Source: Escherichia coli
Lineage (GTDB): Bacteria > Pseudomonadota > Gammaproteobacteria > Enterobacterales > Enterobacteriaceae
Length of the DNA stretch: 64,000 nt
NCBI RefSeq assembly: GCF_003334405.1
Contig: NZ_QOWM01000005.1
Reading direction: 5' to 3' (one strand)
Made by a program: the position numbers and the translations under genes. Within the stretch, counting starts at the first letter, position 1. Every line of letters begins with the position of its first letter. The notes under the pieces are model-generated. The model searched no databases. It was not told the DNA's origin and saw only the letters and a list, made by a program, of their open reading frames with translations. Shown piece by piece: positions 1 to 15,488 of the stretch.

Positions 1-166
1 TTATCGTGAGAGTAATTCATCGGCACGTTAAATCATATCAGGCGTAATACCACAACCCTTAAGTTAGCGCTTATGGGAGTGATCCCCGCCACTTTACAGG
101 TGCTCGCATATCTTCAACGCACCCTATTTTTACCCAGGCCTGCCCACGGGCAGGCTTTTGGGGAGG

Positions 167-1297
167 TTAGCGGGTCAGGTCGTCAAAAAACTTCTTCACA
201 CCATCAAAGAAGCTCTTTGAGCGCGGGCTGTTGTGCTCGCCGGTTGGGCCACCGAAGCTTTCTTGCAGCTCTTGCAGCAGCTGTTTCTGCTTTTCGTTCA
301 GGCCTACCGGTGTTTCGACGACAACGCGGCACAGCAAATCACCCTGTGCGCCACCGCGGACAGACTTGACGCCTTTACCGCGCATACGGAATAGCTTACC
401 GGTCTGGGTTTCGCCAGGCACTTTCAGTTTGACGCGACCATCAAGGGTCGGTACTTCGATTTCGCCACCCAGCGCCGCCATAGCGAAGTTGATCGGGACT
501 TCGCAATACAGGTTGTTGCCTTCACGCTCGAAAATCGGGTGCTGTTTAACCTGAACCTGAACGTACAGATCGCCTGCCGGTGCGCCATGCTCGCCCGCTT
601 CACCTTCGCCCGCAAGACGGATGCGGTCTCCAGTGTCCACCCCTGCCGGGATTTTAACGGACAGCGTTTTGCTACGCTCAACACGACCATGACCATGACA
701 TTTGTTGCACGGATCTTTGATCAGCGTACCGCGGCCCTGACAGTGTGGACAGGTCTGCTGTACAGCGAAGAATCCCTGGCGCATCTGCACCTGACCAGAA
801 CCATGACAGGTCGGACAGGTCTGCGGCTGTGTACCTGGTTTTGCACCGCTACCGTGGCAAACGTCACACTCTTCCAGAGTCGGAATGCGGATCTCTTTGG
901 TCACGCCACGTACAGCTTCTTCGAGGGTGAGCTCCATGTTATAGCGTAAATCAGCACCGCGCGCCGCACGTTGACGACCACGTCCGCCGCCAAAAATATC
1001 GCCGAAAACGTCACCAAAAATATCGCTGAAGTCTGCGCCGCCGCCAAAACCGCCGCCGCCCATGCCACCTTGCTCAAACGCAGCATGACCATACTGATCG
1101 TATGCCGCACGTTTTTGCGAGTCGGTCAGAACTTCATAAGCTTCCTTGATCTCTTTAAATTTCGCCTCGGCCTCTTTGTCACCCTGGTTACGGTCCGGGT
1201 GGTATTTCATGGCCAGGCGTTTGTAGGCCTTTCTGATTTCACGCTCTTCCGCTGTTTTGGAAACGCCTAAAATCTCGTAATAATCTTGCTTAGCCAT
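167..1297 (-). CDS. dnaJ: Chaperone DnaJ (Hsp40); start moved to internal ATG ([12 protein letters not shown]...), 376 aa
   Basis: ORF track 167..1327 translation has J-domain, Gly/Phe-rich linker and four CxxCxGxG zinc-finger repeats; directly downstream of dnaK on the same strand. Confidence 0.95.
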
Positions 1298-1385
1298 CTT
1301 TTTTAAATTGCCCCTAGATGAATGCACGGGCGGAGAGGAAATTCCCCTTCGCCCGTGTCAGTATAATTACCCGTTTATAGGGCGA
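1298..1385 (-). other. dnaK-dnaJ intercistronic stem-loop (8-bp stem cacgggcg/cgcccgtg around 1325-1357)
   Basis: Inverted repeat read directly in the 88-bp gap between the two co-directional genes; no U-run follows on the transcribed strand, so not a terminator. Confidence 0.4.
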
Positions 1386-3302
1386 TTATTTTTTGTCTTT
1401 GACTTCTTCAAATTCAGCGTCGACAACATCGTCATCTTTCGCGTTGTTTGCAGAAGCATCAGCACCGGCAGTCTGCTGCTGGGCATGTTGCTGCTGGGCG
1501 ATTTCCATCAGTTTCTGGGAAACCTGTGCCAGTTCCTGCATTTTCGCTTCGATAGCGGCTTTGTCTTCACCTTTCAGAGCAGTTTCCAGTGCAGTCAGCG
1601 CAGACTCGATAGCAGTTTTGTCGTCAGCCGGCAGTTTGTCGCCTGCTTCTTCAACCTGCTTACGGGTGCTGTGCAGCAGATGGTCGCCCTGGTTGCGAGT
1701 CTGTACCAGCTCTTCAAACTTACGATCAGCTTCGGCGTTAGCTTCTGCGTCGCGTACCATTTTCTGGATTTCATCTTCGTTCAGACCAGAAGAAGCCTTG
1801 ATGGTGATCTTCTGCTCTTTACCGCTGTTTTTATCTTTCGCGGAAACGTGCAGGATACCGTCAGCATCGATATCGAAGGTAACTTCGATCTGCGGCATGC
1901 CGCGCGGTGCCGGGTTGATACCATCCAGGTTGAACTGACCCAGAGATTTGTTATCAGCCGCACGTTTACGTTCACCCTGCAGCACATGGATGGTTACCGC
2001 AGACTGGTTGTCTTCAGCGGTAGAGAACACCTGGCTGTGCTTGGTCGGGATAGTGGTGTTTTTCGCGATCAGCGTCGTCATCACACCGCCCATGGTTTCG
2101 ATACCCAGAGACAGCGGGGTAACGTCCAGCAGCAGTACGTCTTTTACGTCACCAGTCAAAACACCACCCTGAACAGCAGCACCGATTGCTACAGCTTCGT
2201 CCGGGTTAACGTCTTTACGCGGCTCTTTACCAAAGAACTCAGCAACTTTCTTCTGAACCATTGGCATACGAGTCTGACCACCAACGAGGATAACGTCGTC
2301 GATATCAGATACGGACAGGCCAGCGTCCTGCAGTGCAACTTTCAGCGGCTCAATGGAACGGTTTACCAGATCTTCAACCAGGCTTTCCAGTTTCGCACGA
2401 GTCACTTTGATGTTCATGTGTTTCGGACCGGTCGCGTCTGCAGTGATGTATGGCAGGTTAACGTCGGTCTGCTGAGCGGAAGACAGTTCGATTTTCGCTT
2501 TTTCTGCCGCTTCTTTCAGGCGCTGCATTGCCAGCGGATCGTTGCGCAGGTCAATGCCCTGATCTTTCTTGAATTCTTCAACCAGATAGTTGATCAGACG
2601 GCTGTCGAAGTCTTCACCCCCCAGGTGGGTATCACCGTTGGTTGCCAGAACTTCGAAGGTTTTTTCGCCGTCAACTTCGTCGATTTCGATAATAGAAATA
2701 TCGAAAGTACCACCACCCAGGTCATAAACCGCGATAGTACGGTTGCCAGTGCCTTTGTCCAGACCGTAAGCCAGCGCAGCTGCGGTCGGTTCGTTGATGA
2801 TACGTTTTACTTCCAGACCAGCGATACGGCCTGCGTCTTTGGTTGCCTGACGCTGAGCATCGTTAAAGTATGCCGGTACGGTGATAACAGCTTCAGTTAC
2901 CGGTTCACCCAGGTAATCTTCAGCGGTTTTCTTCATTTTTTTCAGCACTTCAGCAGAAATCTGCGGCGGTGCCATTTTCTGGCCTTTAACTTCGACCCAT
3001 GCGTCGCCGTTATCAGCAGCAATAATTTTGAACGGCATGATGGAAACATCACGCTGTACTTCTTCGTCCTGGAAGCGGCGGCCAATCAGGCGTTTAATCG
3101 CAAACAGGGTGTTTTGCGGGTTCGTCACTGCCTGACGTTTAGCCGGCTGACCAACCAGAGTTTCACCATCCTGGGTATAGGCAATGATAGAAGGCGTGGT
3201 GCGATCGCCTTCGGCGTTCTCCAGCACACGAGGAGTGGTGCCATCCATAATCGCTACACAAGAGTTGGTAGTACCCAGGTCGATACCAATTATTTTACCC
3301 AT
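1386..3302 (-). CDS. dnaK: Chaperone DnaK (Hsp70), 638 aa
   Basis: Translation begins [17 protein letters not shown] and carries Hsp70 signatures throughout. Confidence 0.97.
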
Positions 3303-3422
3303 CTAAACGTCTCCACTATATATTCGGTCATCATGTGGTTGTGAGTCTGTAATAGGGGCGAAACGTCTGGTTTCAACTGCCCAATTTCATTTTTTTGCAG
3401 ACTCACTCACTGCGGTTGACTA

Positions 3423-3460
3423 CTAAATGGGGTCGTAACCCACGTCATCAAGGGGGAGAT
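3423..3460 (-). promoter_or_regulatory. Putative sigma32 heat-shock promoter of dnaK (-35 CCCTTGATG, -10 CCCCATTTA on minus strand)
   Basis: Minus-strand sequence tctcccccttgatgacgtgggttacgaccccatttag matches the sigma32 consensus and lies about 120-160 bp upstream of the dnaK start. Confidence 0.55.
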
Positions 3461-3678
3461 GCAAAAATTTTTTGTGCTTTTGCGCAGAAATTTCGCGATA
3501 TGGCAGGACAAGACGTAAAATTGACAGCAATTTTATTCATATAAAGAATGAATCGCAGCCAAGGCATTCATCAAAAAATTGTAATAAAAAGAAAAGATTA
3601 CGTGCCTGAATCTTCTCTTTATCAGCAGTAAACTAGTGGGTATTCATCCCCCTACCTCTTCCCACTAAGAGAATCCTT

Positions 3679-4083
3679 ATGAAATCCGTTTTTACGATTT
3701 CCGCCAGCCTGGCGATTAGCCTGATGCTGTGCTGCACGGCGCAGGCAAACGACCATAAACTCCTCGGCGCCATTGCAATGCCGCGTAACGAAACCAACGA
3801 TCTGGCGCTGAAACTTCCTGTTTGTCGCATTGTGAAACGCATACAACTCTCTGCCGACCATGGCGATTTACAGTTAAGCGGTGCATCGGTTTATTTCAAA
3901 GCCGCCCGTAGCGCCAGTCAGAGCCTGAATATTCCTTCAGAAATAAAAGAAGGGCAAACCACTGACTGGATCAACATTAACAGCGATAACGACAATAAAC
4001 GCTGCGTCTCAAAAATCACCTTTTCGGGTCATACGGTGAACTCATCGGATATGGCCACGCTGAAAATTATCGGCGACGACTAA
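3679..4083 (+). CDS. yaaI: Conserved protein of unknown function (DUF2541) with N-terminal signal peptide, 134 aa
   Basis: ORF track translation; hydrophobic N-terminus [23 protein letters not shown]; position next to dnaK. Confidence 0.85.
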
Positions 4084-7505: not shown

Positions 7506-8936
7506 ATGCCAGATTTTTTCTCCTTTATTAACAGCGTCCTTTGGGGATCGGTAATGATTTACCTGCTCTTCGGCGCAGGTTGTTGGTTCACTTTTCGCAC
7601 CGGATTTGTGCAGTTTCGCTACATCCGCCAGTTTGGCAAAAGTCTTAAAAATAGCATTCATCCACAGCCAGGCGGTTTAACCTCATTTCAGTCATTGTGT
7701 ACCAGTCTTGCGGCGCGCGTGGGTAGCGGCAACCTGGCCGGCGTTGCGCTGGCAATTACCGCCGGTGGACCTGGAGCCGTCTTCTGGATGTGGGTTGCCG
7801 CGTTTATCGGCATGGCGACCTCGTTTGCCGAATGTTCCCTCGCACAGCTTTATAAAGAACGTGATGCCAATGGGCAGTTTCGTGGCGGACCGGCATGGTA
7901 TATGGCGCGCGGGCTGGGGATGCGCTGGATGGGCGTTCTGTTCGCCGTCTTTTTGCTCATCGCCTACGGCATAATTTTCAGCGGAATTCAGGCGAACGCC
8001 GTTGCGCGAGCCCTGAGTTTTTCTTTTGATTTTCCCCCGCTGGTGACAGGTATTATTCTCGCTGTCTTTGCTCTGCTGGCGATCACTCGCGGTCTTCATG
8101 GCGTCGCCCGGCTCATGCAGGGGTTTGTCCCGTTGATGGCGATAATCTGGGTACTGACCAGCCTGGTGATTTGCGTAATGAATATCGGGCAACTTCCCCA
8201 CGTCATTTGGTCTATTTTTGAGAGTGCTTTTGGCTGGCAGGAAGCGGCAGGCGGCGCGGCGGGATATACCTTAAGCCAGGCGATTACTAACGGTTTTCAG
8301 CGCAGTATGTTTTCCAATGAGGCGGGAATGGGGTCGACGCCAAACGCGGCAGCGGCAGCGGCGTCCTGGCCTCCGCATCCGGCAGCGCAAGGGATTGTCC
8401 AGATGATTGGCATTTTTATCGACACCCTGGTCATCTGTACGGCAAGCGCCATGCTGATATTACTGGCGGGTAACGGCACAACCTACATGCCGCTGGAAGG
8501 TATTCAGCTTATCCAGAAGGCGATGCGGGTGCTAATGGGTTCCTGGGGTGCTGAGTTTGTTACCCTCGTGGTTATTCTGTTTGCCTTCAGCTCCATCGTT
8601 GCCAACTACATTTACGCCGAAAACAATCTCTTCTTTTTACGCCTGAACAACCCTAAAGCGATCTGGTGTTTGCGGATCTGCACCTTCGCAACGGTCATCG
8701 GCGGCACCTTGCTAAGTCTTCCGCTGATGTGGCAACTGGCAGATATCATAATGGCCTGCATGGCTATTACCAATTTGACCGCCATTTTACTGCTCTCGCC
8801 TGTGGTTCATACCATTGCCAGTGATTATCTACGCCAGCGTAAACTCGGCGTGCGCCCGGTGTTTGATCCGTTGCGTTATCCGGATATCGGCCGCCAGCTT
8901 TCTCCGGACGCGTGGGATGATGTTTCGCAGGAGTAA
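7506..8936 (+). CDS. yaaJ: Alanine/glycine:cation symporter (AGCS family), 476 aa
   Basis: Translation is a multi-pass membrane protein with AGCS-family character; position between talB and yaaA. Confidence 0.9.
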   Translation: MPDFFSFINSVLWGSVMIYLLFGAGCWFTFRTGFVQFRYIRQFGKSLKNSIHPQPGGLTSFQSLCTSLAARVGSGNLAGVALAITAGGPGAVFWMWVAAFIGMATSFAECSLAQLYKERDANGQFRGGPAWYMARGLGMRWMGVLFAVFLLIAYGIIFSGIQANAVARALSFSFDFPPLVTGIILAVFALLAITRGLHGVARLMQGFVPLMAIIWVLTSLVICVMNIGQLPHVIWSIFESAFGWQEAAGGAAGYTLSQAITNGFQRSMFSNEAGMGSTPNAAAAAASWPPHPAAQGIVQMIGIFIDTLVICTASAMLILLAGNGTTYMPLEGIQLIQKAMRVLMGSWGAEFVTLVVILFAFSSIVANYIYAENNLFFLRLNNPKAIWCLRICTFATVIGGTLLSLPLMWQLADIIMACMAITNLTAILLLSPVVHTIASDYLRQRKLGVRPVFDPLRYPDIGRQLSPDAWDDVSQE

Positions 8937-11731: not shown

Positions 11732-12664
11732 TTAGTTTTCCAGTACTCGTGCGCCCGCCGTATCCAGCCGGCAAATATGAACAAAACCTTCCTGATTTTG
11801 CAGGTAGTTCTTACCCAACCAGTCGGCAACGCGCTGGGCGGTATCCGGCTTGTCACACAGAGCGAACAAGGTCGGGCCGGAGCCGGAGATACCGCTCGCT
11901 ACCGCGCCGATTTCCGCGACCGCCTGCCGCGCCTGCCGGAAGCCTGGCAGTAATCGTTCACGGTAGGGTTCAGCGATAACATCTTTCATCAGCTTCGCGG
12001 CAAGCTCAGGCTGACGGGAATAGCAGGCGTGAATGAAGCCTGCCAGATGTCGCCCGTGCGCAATGCAATCCTGGCGGCGATACTGCGCCGGTAAAATAGC
12101 CCGGGCTTCTGCCGTCGAGACTTTAATCCCCGGATACGCCAGCACCCACAGCCACTCATCAAACCCAGGCACTTGCTGGCTGATGATGTCGTTTTCTTCG
12201 ATCATCAACTGCATACCACCTAGAAAACACGGTGCCACGTTGTCGTAATGAATGCTGCCGGAGATACGTCCTTCCAGCTCGCCCATCAAAGCCAGCAAAC
12301 GAGTGTCATTAAGCGGCTTGCCGCAGTGTTCATTCATCGCCATCAGCGCCGCGACCACCGAACAGGCGCTGGAGCCTAAGCCCGAACCGATCGGCATATT
12401 CTTTTCCAGAGTCATCGCCACTGGAATTTGCTTGCCAAGCTCCTGGCAAAAACGCTCCCAGCACTGATAAACGATATTTTCCCGTGGTTCTGACGGCAGC
12501 TTATCGGCAAAGCGCCCGAGGTTGTTGAGACTGAATATCTCTGCCGCCTCAACCGTAACTACATCTCCGAGCAATGCACCATCAACGGGTGTCACCGCCG
12601 CCCCGAGCACATCAAACCCGACGCTCATATTGGCACTGGAAGCCGGGGCATAAACTTTAACCAT
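11732..12664 (-). CDS. thrB: Homoserine kinase, 310 aa
   Basis: Translation begins [21 protein letters not shown]...; GHMP kinase motif; between thrA and thrC. Confidence 0.97.
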
Positions 12665-12665
12665 G

Positions 12666-15128
12666 TCAGACTCCTAACTTCCATGAGAGGGTACGCAGCA
12701 GATCGGCAAAGACACCAGCAGCGGTAACGTCATTGCCCGCACCATATCCGCGCAGCACCAACGGCAGCGGCTGATAATAGTGGCTATAGAAGGCCAGGGC
12801 GTTTTCGCCATTTTTCACTTTGAACAGCGGATCATTACCATCCACTTCGGCAATCTTCACGCGACAGACGCCATCTTCATCAATATTGCCAACATAGCGC
12901 AAAACTTTTCCTTCATCACGGGCCTTCGCCACGCGCGCGGCAAAGCGATCGTCGAGCTGTGACAGATTCGCCATAAAAGCGGCAACATCACCCTCGGCGT
13001 TAAACTCTGCGGGCAGCACAGGTTCAATTTCAATATCCGCCAGCTCCAGTTCACGTCCCGTTTCACGGGCGAGAATCAATAGTTTACGCGCCACATCCAT
13101 ACCAGAAAGATCATCTCGCGGATCCGGTTCGGTATAACCCATTTCCCGTGCCAGCGTGGTCGCCTCGGAGAAACTCATGCCTTCGTCTAACTTGCCGAAG
13201 ATATAAGAAAGCGATCCTGAAAGAATGCCGGAGAACTTCATCAATTCATCACCAGCATTGAGCAGATTTTGCAGGTTTTCAATAACCGGTAATCCAGCCC
13301 CAACGTTGGTGTCATAGAGGAATTTCCGCCGCGATTTTTCCGCCGCATGACGCAACAGATGGTAGTAATCCATCGACGAGGTGTTGGCCTTTTTGTTCGG
13401 CGTGACAACGTGGAAACCTTCGCGCAGGAAGTCGGCATATTGATCCGCCACTGCCTGGCTGGAGGTGCAGTCAACAATGACCGGGTTCAGCAGATGATAT
13501 TCTTTCACGAGGCGAATTAAGCGCCCGAGATTAAACGGCTCTTTGGCTTGCGCCAGTTCTTCCTGCCAGTTTTCCAGATTTAGGCCATGCACATTGGTGA
13601 GCAGTGCCTTCGAGTTGGCAACACCGCAGACACGTAAGTCGATATGTTTATTCTTCAGCCAGCTTTGCTGACGCTTCAGTTGCTCCAGCAGCGCACCGCC
13701 AACGCCACCGACGCCAATCACAAACACTTCGATAACCTGATCGGTATTGAACAGCATCTGATGAGTAACGCGCACGCCAGTGGTCGCATCATCGTTATTT
13801 ACCACGACAGAGATTGAGCGTTCAGAAGATCCCTGAGCAATAGCGACAATGTTGATATTGGCGCGGGCCAGCGCGGCAAAGAATTTCGCCGAGATCCCAC
13901 GCAAGGTACGCATACCATCACCTACCACCGAGATAATGGCCAGCCGTTCCGTCACCGCCAGCGGCTCCAGTAAGCCTTCTTTCAGTTCCAGGTAGAACTC
14001 TTCCTGCATTGCCCGTTCAGCCCGCACACAGTCGCTTTGCGGAACGCAGAAACTGATACTGTATTCGGAAGATGATTGCGTAATCAGCACCACGGAAATA
14101 CGGGCGCGTGACATCGCGGCAAAGACGCGCGCCGCCATGCCGACCATTCCTTTCATCCCCGGGCCGGAAACGCTGAACATTGCCATGTTATTCAGATTGG
14201 AAATGCCCTTGACCGGTAATTCGTCTTCATCACGACTGGCACCAATGAGCGTACCTGGTGCTTGAGGATTTCCGGTATTTTTAATCAGGCAAGGGATCTG
14301 GAACTGGGCGATGGGGGTAATGGTGCGGGGGTGAAGAACTTTAGCGCCGAAGTAGGAAAGCTCCATCGCTTCCTGGTAGGACATCGACTTCAACAACCTC
14401 GCATCGGGCACCTGACGCGGGTCGCAGGTATAGACCCCGTCAACGTCCGTCCAAATCTCGCAACAATCGGCGCGTAAACAGGCAGCCAGCACCGCCGCGG
14501 AGTAGTCGGAACCGTTGCGTCCAAGTACCACCAGTTCGCCTTTTTCATTACCGGCGGTGAAGCCTGCCATCAGCACCATGTGATCAGCCGGAATACGACT
14601 TGCCGCAATACGGCGGGTGGACTCAGCAATATCGACGGTAGATTCGAGGTAATGCCCCACTGCCAGTAGTTTTTCGACCGGATCGATAACGGTAACGTTG
14701 TGACCACGCGCTTCTAACACGCCGGCCATAATGGCGATCGACATTTTCTCGCCACGGCAAATCAGCGCAGCGTTAATGCTATCCGGGCACTGCCCTAACA
14801 AACTAATGCCATGCAGGACATGTTTTATTTGGGCAAATTCCTGGTCGACGAAAGTTTTCAATTGCGCCAGCGGGAATCCCGGCTGGGCGGCGGCGAGTCC
14901 CGTCAAAAGTTCGGCAAAAATACGTTCGGCATCGCTGATATTGGGTAAAGCATCCTGGCCGCTAATGGTTTTTTCAATCATCGCCACCAGGTGGTTGGTG
15001 ATTTTGGCGGGGGCAGAGAGGACGGTGGCCACCTGCCCCTGCCTGGCATTGCTTTCCAGAATATCGGCAACCCGCAGAAAACGTTCTGCATTTGCCACTG
15101 ATGTACCGCCGAACTTCAACACTCGCAT
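12666..15128 (-). CDS. thrA: Bifunctional aspartokinase I / homoserine dehydrogenase I, 820 aa
   Basis: Translation begins [20 protein letters not shown]...; first gene of the thr operon after the leader. Confidence 0.97.
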
Positions 15129-15154
15129 GGTTGTTACCTCGTTACCTTTGGTCG

Positions 15155-15191
15155 AAAAAAAAAGCCCGCACTGTCAGGTGCGGGCTTTTTT
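15155..15191 (-). terminator. thr attenuator terminator (stem agcccgcactgtcaggtgcgggct with flanking A/T runs)
   Basis: Hairpin plus U-run between thrL and thrA, read directly from the sequence. Confidence 0.85.
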
Positions 15192-15209
15192 CTGTGTTTC
15201 CTGTACGCG

Positions 15210-15278
<69 letters not shown>

Positions 15279-15488
15279 TGTTGTGTACTCTGTAATTTTT
15301 ATCTGTCTGTGCGCTATGCCTATATTGGTTAAAGTATTTAGTGACCTAAGTCAATAAAATTTTAATTTACTCACGGCAGGTAACCAGTTCAGAAGCTGCT
15401 GTCAGAGACTCTTTTTTTAATCCACACAGAGACATATTGCCCATTGCAGTCAGAATGAAAAGCTGAAAAATACTTACTAAGGCGTTTT

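Follow-up and report, generated by a model that had tools for sequence, protein, structure and literature searches.

Hairpins between the cistrons of an operon can attenuate transcription or stabilise the 3′ end of the upstream message. Such elements combine a G+C-rich stem-loop, an RNA 3′ end just after it, an abundant mRNA that covers only the upstream gene and less RNA downstream; the hairpin that follows malE in malEFG is an example. A second class that shares features with the locus described here consists of small RNAs processed from 3′ UTRs or spacers, such as CpxQ and SroC, which are released by RNase E. The dnaKJ transcript carries two genes whose products are needed in different amounts: DnaK works with sub-stoichiometric DnaJ.

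The spacer between dnaK and dnaJ harbours a described element, tpke11 (Rfam RF02031). Later papers credit Rivas et al. (2001) with its first report, as a non-coding RNA whose expression was seen on northern blots, and Stead et al. term it “putative”. Its status as a gene varies by resource: the tpke11 feature is absent from PGAP-annotated E. coli genomes and from the current K-12 RefSeq record, which has only dnaK and dnaJ at the locus, while Rfam and the gene list of Adams et al. 2021 (G0-8893) still carry it. The family type given by Rfam is “Gene; sRNA”, but the data discussed below favour a cis-acting mRNA element with the small RNA as a by-product.

We analysed this spacer in a stretch of 64,000 nt of E. 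coli DNA, hereafter the window. It contains a match to the whole of the RF02031 model (Table 1) which is well above the gathering score of 43 (Rfam 15). Read as 1375..1298 (-), the match falls within the dnaK-dnaJ spacer on the coding strand, and a match is found at the same position in 14 other enteric loci; the plus-strand match to this model in the window reaches only 22.1 bits. There is no sequence difference between the window element and tpke11, and genomic position, transcript strand and hairpin are the same, so that the identity of the spacer element as tpke11 is near certain. The element, its hairpin and its position are already known and have been catalogued since 2001; we therefore offer a tidy account of something known and claim no discovery. 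The Rfam model does differ from the element as delimited here in one respect: it omits the first 10 nt past the dnaK stop codon, including an invariant UCGCCCU box. A separate, sub-threshold Rfam match lies inside dnaK (1546..1602 (-); archaeal C/D-box snoRNA sR17, 23.7 bits where the gathering score is 36, E = 0.026) and is almost certainly due to chance.

Table 1 Features of the dnaK-dnaJ region in window coordinates
Feature	Position	Strand	Basis and remarks
dnaK coding sequence	1386..3302	(-)	ORF list, translation; dnaK in annotated E. coli genomes; stop codon UAA 1388..1386
dnaJ coding sequence	167..1297	(-)	True start is the ATG at 1297
dnaK-dnaJ spacer, inside the dnaKJ transcript	1298..1385	(-)	Exactly 88 nt; fold z = -4.3
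Rfam RF02031 (tpke11) match	1298..1375	(-)	cmscan 69.6 bits, E = 2.7e-14; model positions 1-77 of 77
Post-stop box UCGCCCU	1379..1385	(-)	Layout, alignment; UYGCCC conserved in 36 unique enterobacterial spacers
5′ arm of 8-bp stem, CACGGGCG	1350..1357	(-)	Fold; identical in 33/36 unique enterobacterial spacers
Inner segment	1333..1349	(-)	A.C mismatch 1349/1333; 6-bp helix; loop AUU 1342..1340
3′ arm of 8-bp stem, CGCCCGUG	1325..1332	(-)	Fold, alignment
RNA 3′ end (MG1655 14145(+))	1320	(-)	C 5 nt 3′ of the stem base; Term-seq, Adams et al. 2021 (eLife)
G-box UAGGGGC	1310..1316	(-)	Sole Shine-Dalgarno-like element for dnaJ; the E. coli G-run ends 13 nt before the AUG
A/U-rich leader AAUUUAAAAAAG	1298..1309	(-)	Directly precedes the dnaJ AUG; A-rich in all enteric spacers

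Window positions 1..3665 are colinear with MG1655 15464..11800 (reverse complement); 11 of the 3665 nt differ, but none of these lies in the spacer, which corresponds to NC_000913.3 14080..14167 (2281..2368 of locus L121). Positions 1100-1600 were matched in 5425 of 5426 complete E. coli genomes. In RNA the spacer reads UCGCCCUAUAAACGGGUAAUUAUACUGA-CACGGGCG-A-AGGGGA-AUU-UCCUCU-C-CGCCCGUG-CAUUCAUCUAGGGGCAAUUUAAAAAAG, followed by the dnaJ AUG. The end of the hairpin 3′ arm includes a GUG (1325..1327 (-)) which is in frame with dnaJ without an intervening stop, and a mechanical ORF list starts dnaJ there, 10 codons early (167..1327 (-)). This extension is not conserved, because a stop follows in most other enteric spacers (GUG CAC GCA UGU UAA).

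The far side of dnaJ also deserves a remark. Window positions 1..78 equal MG1655 15387..15464 with 0 mismatches and are the first part of IS186A (insL1), which begins 88 nt beyond dnaJ. In Salmonella SL1344 the dnaJ 3′ UTR is listed as the sRNA candidate STnc890, with a 3.5-fold enrichment in Hfq co-immunoprecipitation (Chao et al. 2017, Table S5). Its equivalent would fall below window position 167, where the IS186 copy might truncate it.

The original prediction for this spacer described a stable, GC-rich 8-bp stem with a 17-nt loop and no terminator U-run in an 88-bp gap of the dnaKJ transcript, together with a small RNA annotated near dnaK. The gap is exact, with the correction that genes and transcript are on the minus strand, and the RNA that it mentioned is tpke11. 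The stem and the 17-nt spacing of its arms are as described, but the loop is not open: an A.C mismatch is followed by an inner helix AGGGGA/UCCUCU (1348..1343 / 1339..1334) of 6 bp and a 3-nt loop, which brings the whole hairpin to 14 bp. The stability is borne out by the fold energies. The hairpin alone folds at -23.4 kcal/mol, and the 88-nt spacer has an MFE of -32.7 kcal/mol against -19.4 +/- 3.1 in dinucleotide shuffles (z = -4.3), none of 200 shuffles being as good. The observation on the U-run likewise stands: a terminator consensus scan returned no terminator at the hairpin, where the post-stem tail CAUUCAUCU has 4 U in 9 and no U-tract.

An antisense-strand function was considered and set aside. 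Fold energies do not discriminate between the two strands: the plus strand of the E. coli window folds slightly better than the minus strand, and across the hairpins compared the sense strand is the more stable in 11, the antisense in 6, with a tie in 7. We assign the element to the minus strand because of the transcript context, Term-seq and Rfam. In 5425 of the 5426 complete E. coli genomes the hairpin has a single location; it is therefore not a repeated extragenic palindrome of the REP/BIME type, which is present in many copies.

Published RNA maps place an RNA end at this hairpin. Adams et al. 2021 (MG1655, LB, OD 0.4; supplementary files 1 and 3) recorded the 3′ end at 14145(+), which they classed as internal to tpke11, 23 nt before dnaJ. 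Their DirectRNA-seq coverage in 800-nt windows falls about 3-fold across it, from 1085 upstream to 351 downstream, so that about a third of the RNA reads through past the hairpin. With the Rho inhibitor bicyclomycin the values are 1076 and 435, and downstream coverage is not restored; the Rho score of the end is 1.25 (“No”), and its intrinsic-terminator score is 4.33 at a cut-off of 3.0 (Adams et al. 2021). Although three growth conditions are represented in supplementary file 1, the end has only one entry there, with a modest read count of 1862. The published end, 5 nt after the stem, would fit Rho-independent termination in vivo, but an end trimmed by exonucleases would look identical. Neither dnaK nor dnaJ has an entry in the supplementary data of Dar & Sorek 2018 (PLoS Genet).

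Compared with a canonical intrinsic terminator, tpke11 has the same G+C-rich stem-loop (14 bp, -23.4 kcal/mol), a 3′ end a few nt on, insensitivity to bicyclomycin and a terminator score above the cut-off. It differs in having no U-tract and in letting about a third of the RNA through. The post-stem tails of other enterics read CACGCAUGU or CUCGCAUGU, mostly with 3 U in 9 and with CACG or CUCG in the first four positions. This near absence of U in the first four post-stem positions of most enterics speaks against canonical intrinsic termination as the mechanism that has been conserved.

Transcript sizes and nuclease mutants bear on the same region. The main dnaK band on the northern blots of Stead et al. 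is a 2.1-kb dnaK-only RNA. Using TIER-seq in Salmonella at 44 C, Chao et al. 2017 mapped two RNase E-dependent 5′ ends in the dnaK-dnaJ region. The first coincides with the final base of the dnaK stop codon (20 and 15 reads versus 1 and 1 in rne-ts; adjusted P 0.027) and corresponds by homology to window position 1386, at the 5′ edge of the post-stop box. The second (13544; 88 and 77 reads versus 24 and 15; adjusted P 0.005) falls on the A that immediately follows the invariant 5′ arm of the stem, by homology window position 1349. Its location inside a very stable stem-loop is a puzzle. No RNase E site is listed between the hairpin and the dnaJ AUG in the Salmonella data (Chao et al. 2017).

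A further Salmonella study (mBio, 2025) found dnaK RNA 2.5-fold above the RNA of the spacer and dnaJ at low Mg2+ and similar levels of dnaK, spacer and dnaJ RNA at high Mg2+. It described a PhoP-dependent destabilisation of the dnaJ part, noted no intrinsic terminator and pointed to tpke11. The parity at high Mg2+ means that the uncoupling of the two genes may be conditional and not constitutive.

These data invite the thought that the hairpin is a site for RNase III or another double-strand-specific nuclease, whose cut would separate the cistrons and let the dnaJ part decay, as in the rpsO-pnp spacer. On tiling arrays dnaJ RNA is raised only in the RNase III mutant, while dnaK RNA is raised in both RNase E and RNase III mutants (Stead et al.), and the Salmonella 5′ end within the hairpin is only partly RNase E-dependent, with the residual 24 and 15 reads in rne-ts. 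However, a cut in the stem would strip the dnaK RNA of its 3′ protection, yet the 2.1-kb dnaK RNA is the main species, and the mapped 3′ end lies past the stem and not within it. Typical RNase III substrates span roughly two helical turns, and the helix here, 14 bp with a mismatch, is shorter than that. We regard this explanation as very unlikely.

Our preferred reading, to which we give a probability of about 60%, is that tpke11 is a cis-acting hairpin which forms and stabilises an mRNA 3′ end and thereby uncouples dnaK and dnaJ mRNA levels, the small RNA being a stable by-product. The 14-bp hairpin would define the Rho-independent 3′ end a few nt past the stem in one of two ways: termination that is inefficient for want of a good U-tract, or stalling of 3′-exonucleases at the hairpin after an endonucleolytic cut downstream. 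Either would yield plenty of an mRNA that covers dnaK only and is capped by the hairpin, with RNA over dnaJ lower by about three-fold. The poorly placed dnaJ ribosome-binding site would add to the effect, so that DnaJ is kept below DnaK. The tpke11 RNA of the northern blots would then be a hairpin-containing by-product which extends from the RNase E cut at the dnaK stop to the 3′ end past the stem.

The hairpin and the drop in coverage are linked by correlation; from this we infer that the hairpin causes both the drop and the ends, and the choice between termination and processing is presumptive in the same way. Trimming back by exonucleases requires a cut between the hairpin and the dnaJ AUG, and none is reported in Salmonella, which counts against it. 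The original prediction had the stem-loop setting the dnaK:dnaJ expression ratio through partial termination, processing or translational control. The first two routes agree with the published maps, namely the 3′ end, the drop from 1085 to 351, the 2.1-kb RNA, the RNase E cuts and the 2.5-fold difference in Salmonella, with the causal step presumed; translational control finds no support in the pairing and temperature calculations given below. Two of the checks which it had proposed, read-through across the gap and 3′-end mapping, can be read from the E. coli data: coverage is not uniform, and an end maps to window position 1320.

Set beside the intra-operon hairpins, tpke11 is distinguished by being a dedicated single-copy element, by a stem that is invariant across a bacterial order, and by a causal role that is presumed from the data above. 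It also resembles the processed small RNAs, having an RNase E-dependent 5′ end at the upstream stop codon (in Salmonella) and a stable terminal hairpin. It differs from the Hfq-type members of that class in having no poly-U tail, no in vivo target and no overexpression phenotype, and its reported target interactions are in vitro gel shifts only.

This resemblance raises the question of whether tpke11 is a genuine trans-acting small RNA which pairs with other mRNAs, the spacer being merely its place of manufacture. The RNase E cut at the dnaK stop and the 3′ end past the hairpin would free a discrete RNA of about 67 nt, the first report (Rivas et al. 2001, as cited by later papers) was of an expressed non-coding RNA, gel shifts with pgsA, prlC and yehU fragments have been reported, and so has a PhoP-dependent change of expression in Salmonella inside fibroblasts. 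The published signs of a separate small RNA in cells are the northern blot of Rivas et al., the Term-seq 3′ end and the RNase E-dependent 5′ end of Salmonella. Against this, the targets were seen in vitro only, with an RNA that had been lengthened artificially, a screen of biofilm, motility and fimbriae showed no effect of overexpression, and the RNA has no U-tail of the kind found in Hfq-dependent sRNAs. No promoter-like site of its own is predicted on the minus strand near the dnaK end. The feature is omitted from the current K-12 RefSeq and PGAP annotations and is no more than “putative” for Stead et al. Its best-conserved parts, moreover, are the stem and two gene-adjacent boxes and not an accessible seed region. 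A trans-acting role thus appears unlikely.

Conservation was assessed on spacers that were gathered independently of the hairpin, by one scan anchored on the dnaJ start and one metagenome scan anchored on the DnaK C-terminus. The permissive pattern of the first matched across all bacteria, mostly outside the enterics, with at least 7 Enterobacterales loci; enteric diversity comes mainly from the second. Among the matches listed, the sample comprises 36 distinct spacers of the enterobacterial type, 85-116 nt long and including that of the window. They share a common order: a UYGCCC box directly 3′ of the stop codon, a variable stretch which in the longer enteric spacers houses an extra hairpin, the CACGGGCG/CGCCCGUG stem with the inner helix, a CAUGUUAAGGG(G)C box that reads CAUUCAUCUAGGGGC in E. 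coli, and the leader. The 8-bp stem is identical in 33 of the 36.

The inner helix behaves differently. Other species have 23 distinct versions of it, among them GGGG/CCUC, AGAGG/CCUCU, GGAG/CUCC, GAG-GAAA-CUC and GGAU/AUCC, and all of them fold. When the arms were swapped between versions, the mean energy went from -22.4 kcal/mol for cognate arms to -20.7 kcal/mol, and 0 of 2000 permutations reached the cognate mean. We used this register-free test because the MAFFT/RNAalifold consensus, which confirms the outer stem, misaligns the inner helix and understates its covariation. The inner helix varies in sequence yet keeps its pairing, a pattern which, in the sequences compared, indicates that the structure of the hairpin is under selection.

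The two flanking boxes suggest a further possibility, that translation of dnaJ is controlled by pairing of the post-stop GCCC box with the G-box, which would be masked until the helix is opened by a terminating dnaK ribosome (coupling) or by heat (an RNA thermometer). The two boxes are invariant throughout Enterobacterales, the G-box appearing in other enterics as UUAAGGG(G)C or UUGAGGGC, and a box pairing of about -10 kcal/mol is possible in 35 of 35 spacers and is part of the MFE fold in 22. The distance from the G-run to the AUG, 9-15 nt across enteric spacers and mostly A-rich, is long for a Shine-Dalgarno sequence. Pairing of the boxes shows no covariation, however: swapped heads and tails pair equally well (1389 of 2000 permutations), and in 13 of the 35 spacers the post-stop box forms a local helix in its place. 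The pairing is not robust to context either: when 30 nt of coding sequence are included on either side, the E. coli G-box is paired with the post-stop box at 37 C with a probability near 0.02. From 25 to 50 C the probability that the G-box is unpaired shifts just from 0.47 to 0.60, and the main stem stays closed throughout; because accessibility hardly changes over this range, a thermometer is not supported. A comparison with the ROSE and fourU types gave the same picture, with unpaired probabilities from 30 to 45 C of 0.50 to 0.60 for the G-box and 0.31 to 0.32 for the AUG, and the main stem closed. Control of dnaJ translation by the boxes is accordingly quite improbable.

The RF02031 model detects 14 of 15 divergent enteric spacers (48.6-78 bits), the sole miss being that of an AT-rich endosymbiont, and 0 of 15 non-enteric loci; the tpke11 family is therefore confined to Enterobacterales. 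One of the detected spacers, from the metagenome contig Ga0209370_1000464 (L170), has a 30-nt self-complementary insertion at the tip of the hairpin loop. This lengthens the helix to -32.8 kcal/mol, and the spacer is still above the RF02031 threshold at 48.6 bits.

Spacer hairpins as such have a wider distribution. Among the matches listed, 81 of 96 spacers without the enteric core have a stem-loop of -15 kcal/mol or below in their MFE folds, and only 20 of those 81 hairpins have 5 U or more in the next 9 nt; these spacers, mostly of beta-, gamma- and alphaproteobacteria, are not phylogenetically independent samples. Again among the matches listed, 69 of 85 unique non-enteric spacers have z below -2 against dinucleotide shuffles (median -3.4). 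Strong dnaK-dnaJ spacer hairpins, mostly without a U-tract, are thus common to most other Proteobacteria sampled, and the design is wider than the tpke11 family. At two Pseudomonas loci, Rfam recognises the sRNA P31 (RF01676) at 7945..8026 (+) of L017 (108 bits) and 3959..4037 (-) of L036 (63 bits). It lies about 1 kb beyond the dnaJ end on the opposite strand, outside the dnaK-dnaJ spacer.

One feature of the enteric element is puzzling: throughout Enterobacterales the 8-bp stem and the two boxes that flank it have a fixed sequence, but the inner helix covaries. If the hairpin were no more than a structural barrier, it is not obvious why a sequence-invariant stem and boxes should stand beside a freely covarying helix. 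The stem and boxes could be a sequence-specific binding site for a protein, either an RNA-binding regulator or an autoregulatory component of the chaperone system, which tunes DnaK:DnaJ stoichiometry under stress; the conditional, PhoP-dependent uncoupling in Salmonella would fit such a site as well. We know of no protein that binds the spacer hairpin, none of the results here indicates one, and selection for stability could by itself freeze a G+C-rich stem in which single changes are deleterious. This makes a stress-tuned protein site highly improbable.

A broader and admittedly doubtful proposal takes the invariant stem and both boxes (UCGCCCU and UAAGGG(G)C) as a sequence-specific module for a protein or nuclease. 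It would serve a regulated and not a constitutive uncoupling, for instance the PhoP-dependent uncoupling at low Mg2+, and the strong but unrelated spacer hairpins of other Proteobacteria would be convergent stoichiometry devices.

The reading that we prefer, a cis-acting hairpin which forms a 3′ end, bears on the 2025 Salmonella study, in which dnaK and dnaJ were uncoupled under Mg2+ starvation by a mechanism that was left unexplained there and for which the spacer was pointed at. Published maps show dnaK transcripts that often end at the hairpin, which probably helps the cell to make more DnaK than DnaJ. Together, the 3′ end from Term-seq, the sites of RNase E and the pattern of conservation yield a simple, testable proposal for how the dnaK:dnaJ ratio is set, and they suggest that the label of an “sRNA gene” may be misleading for tpke11.
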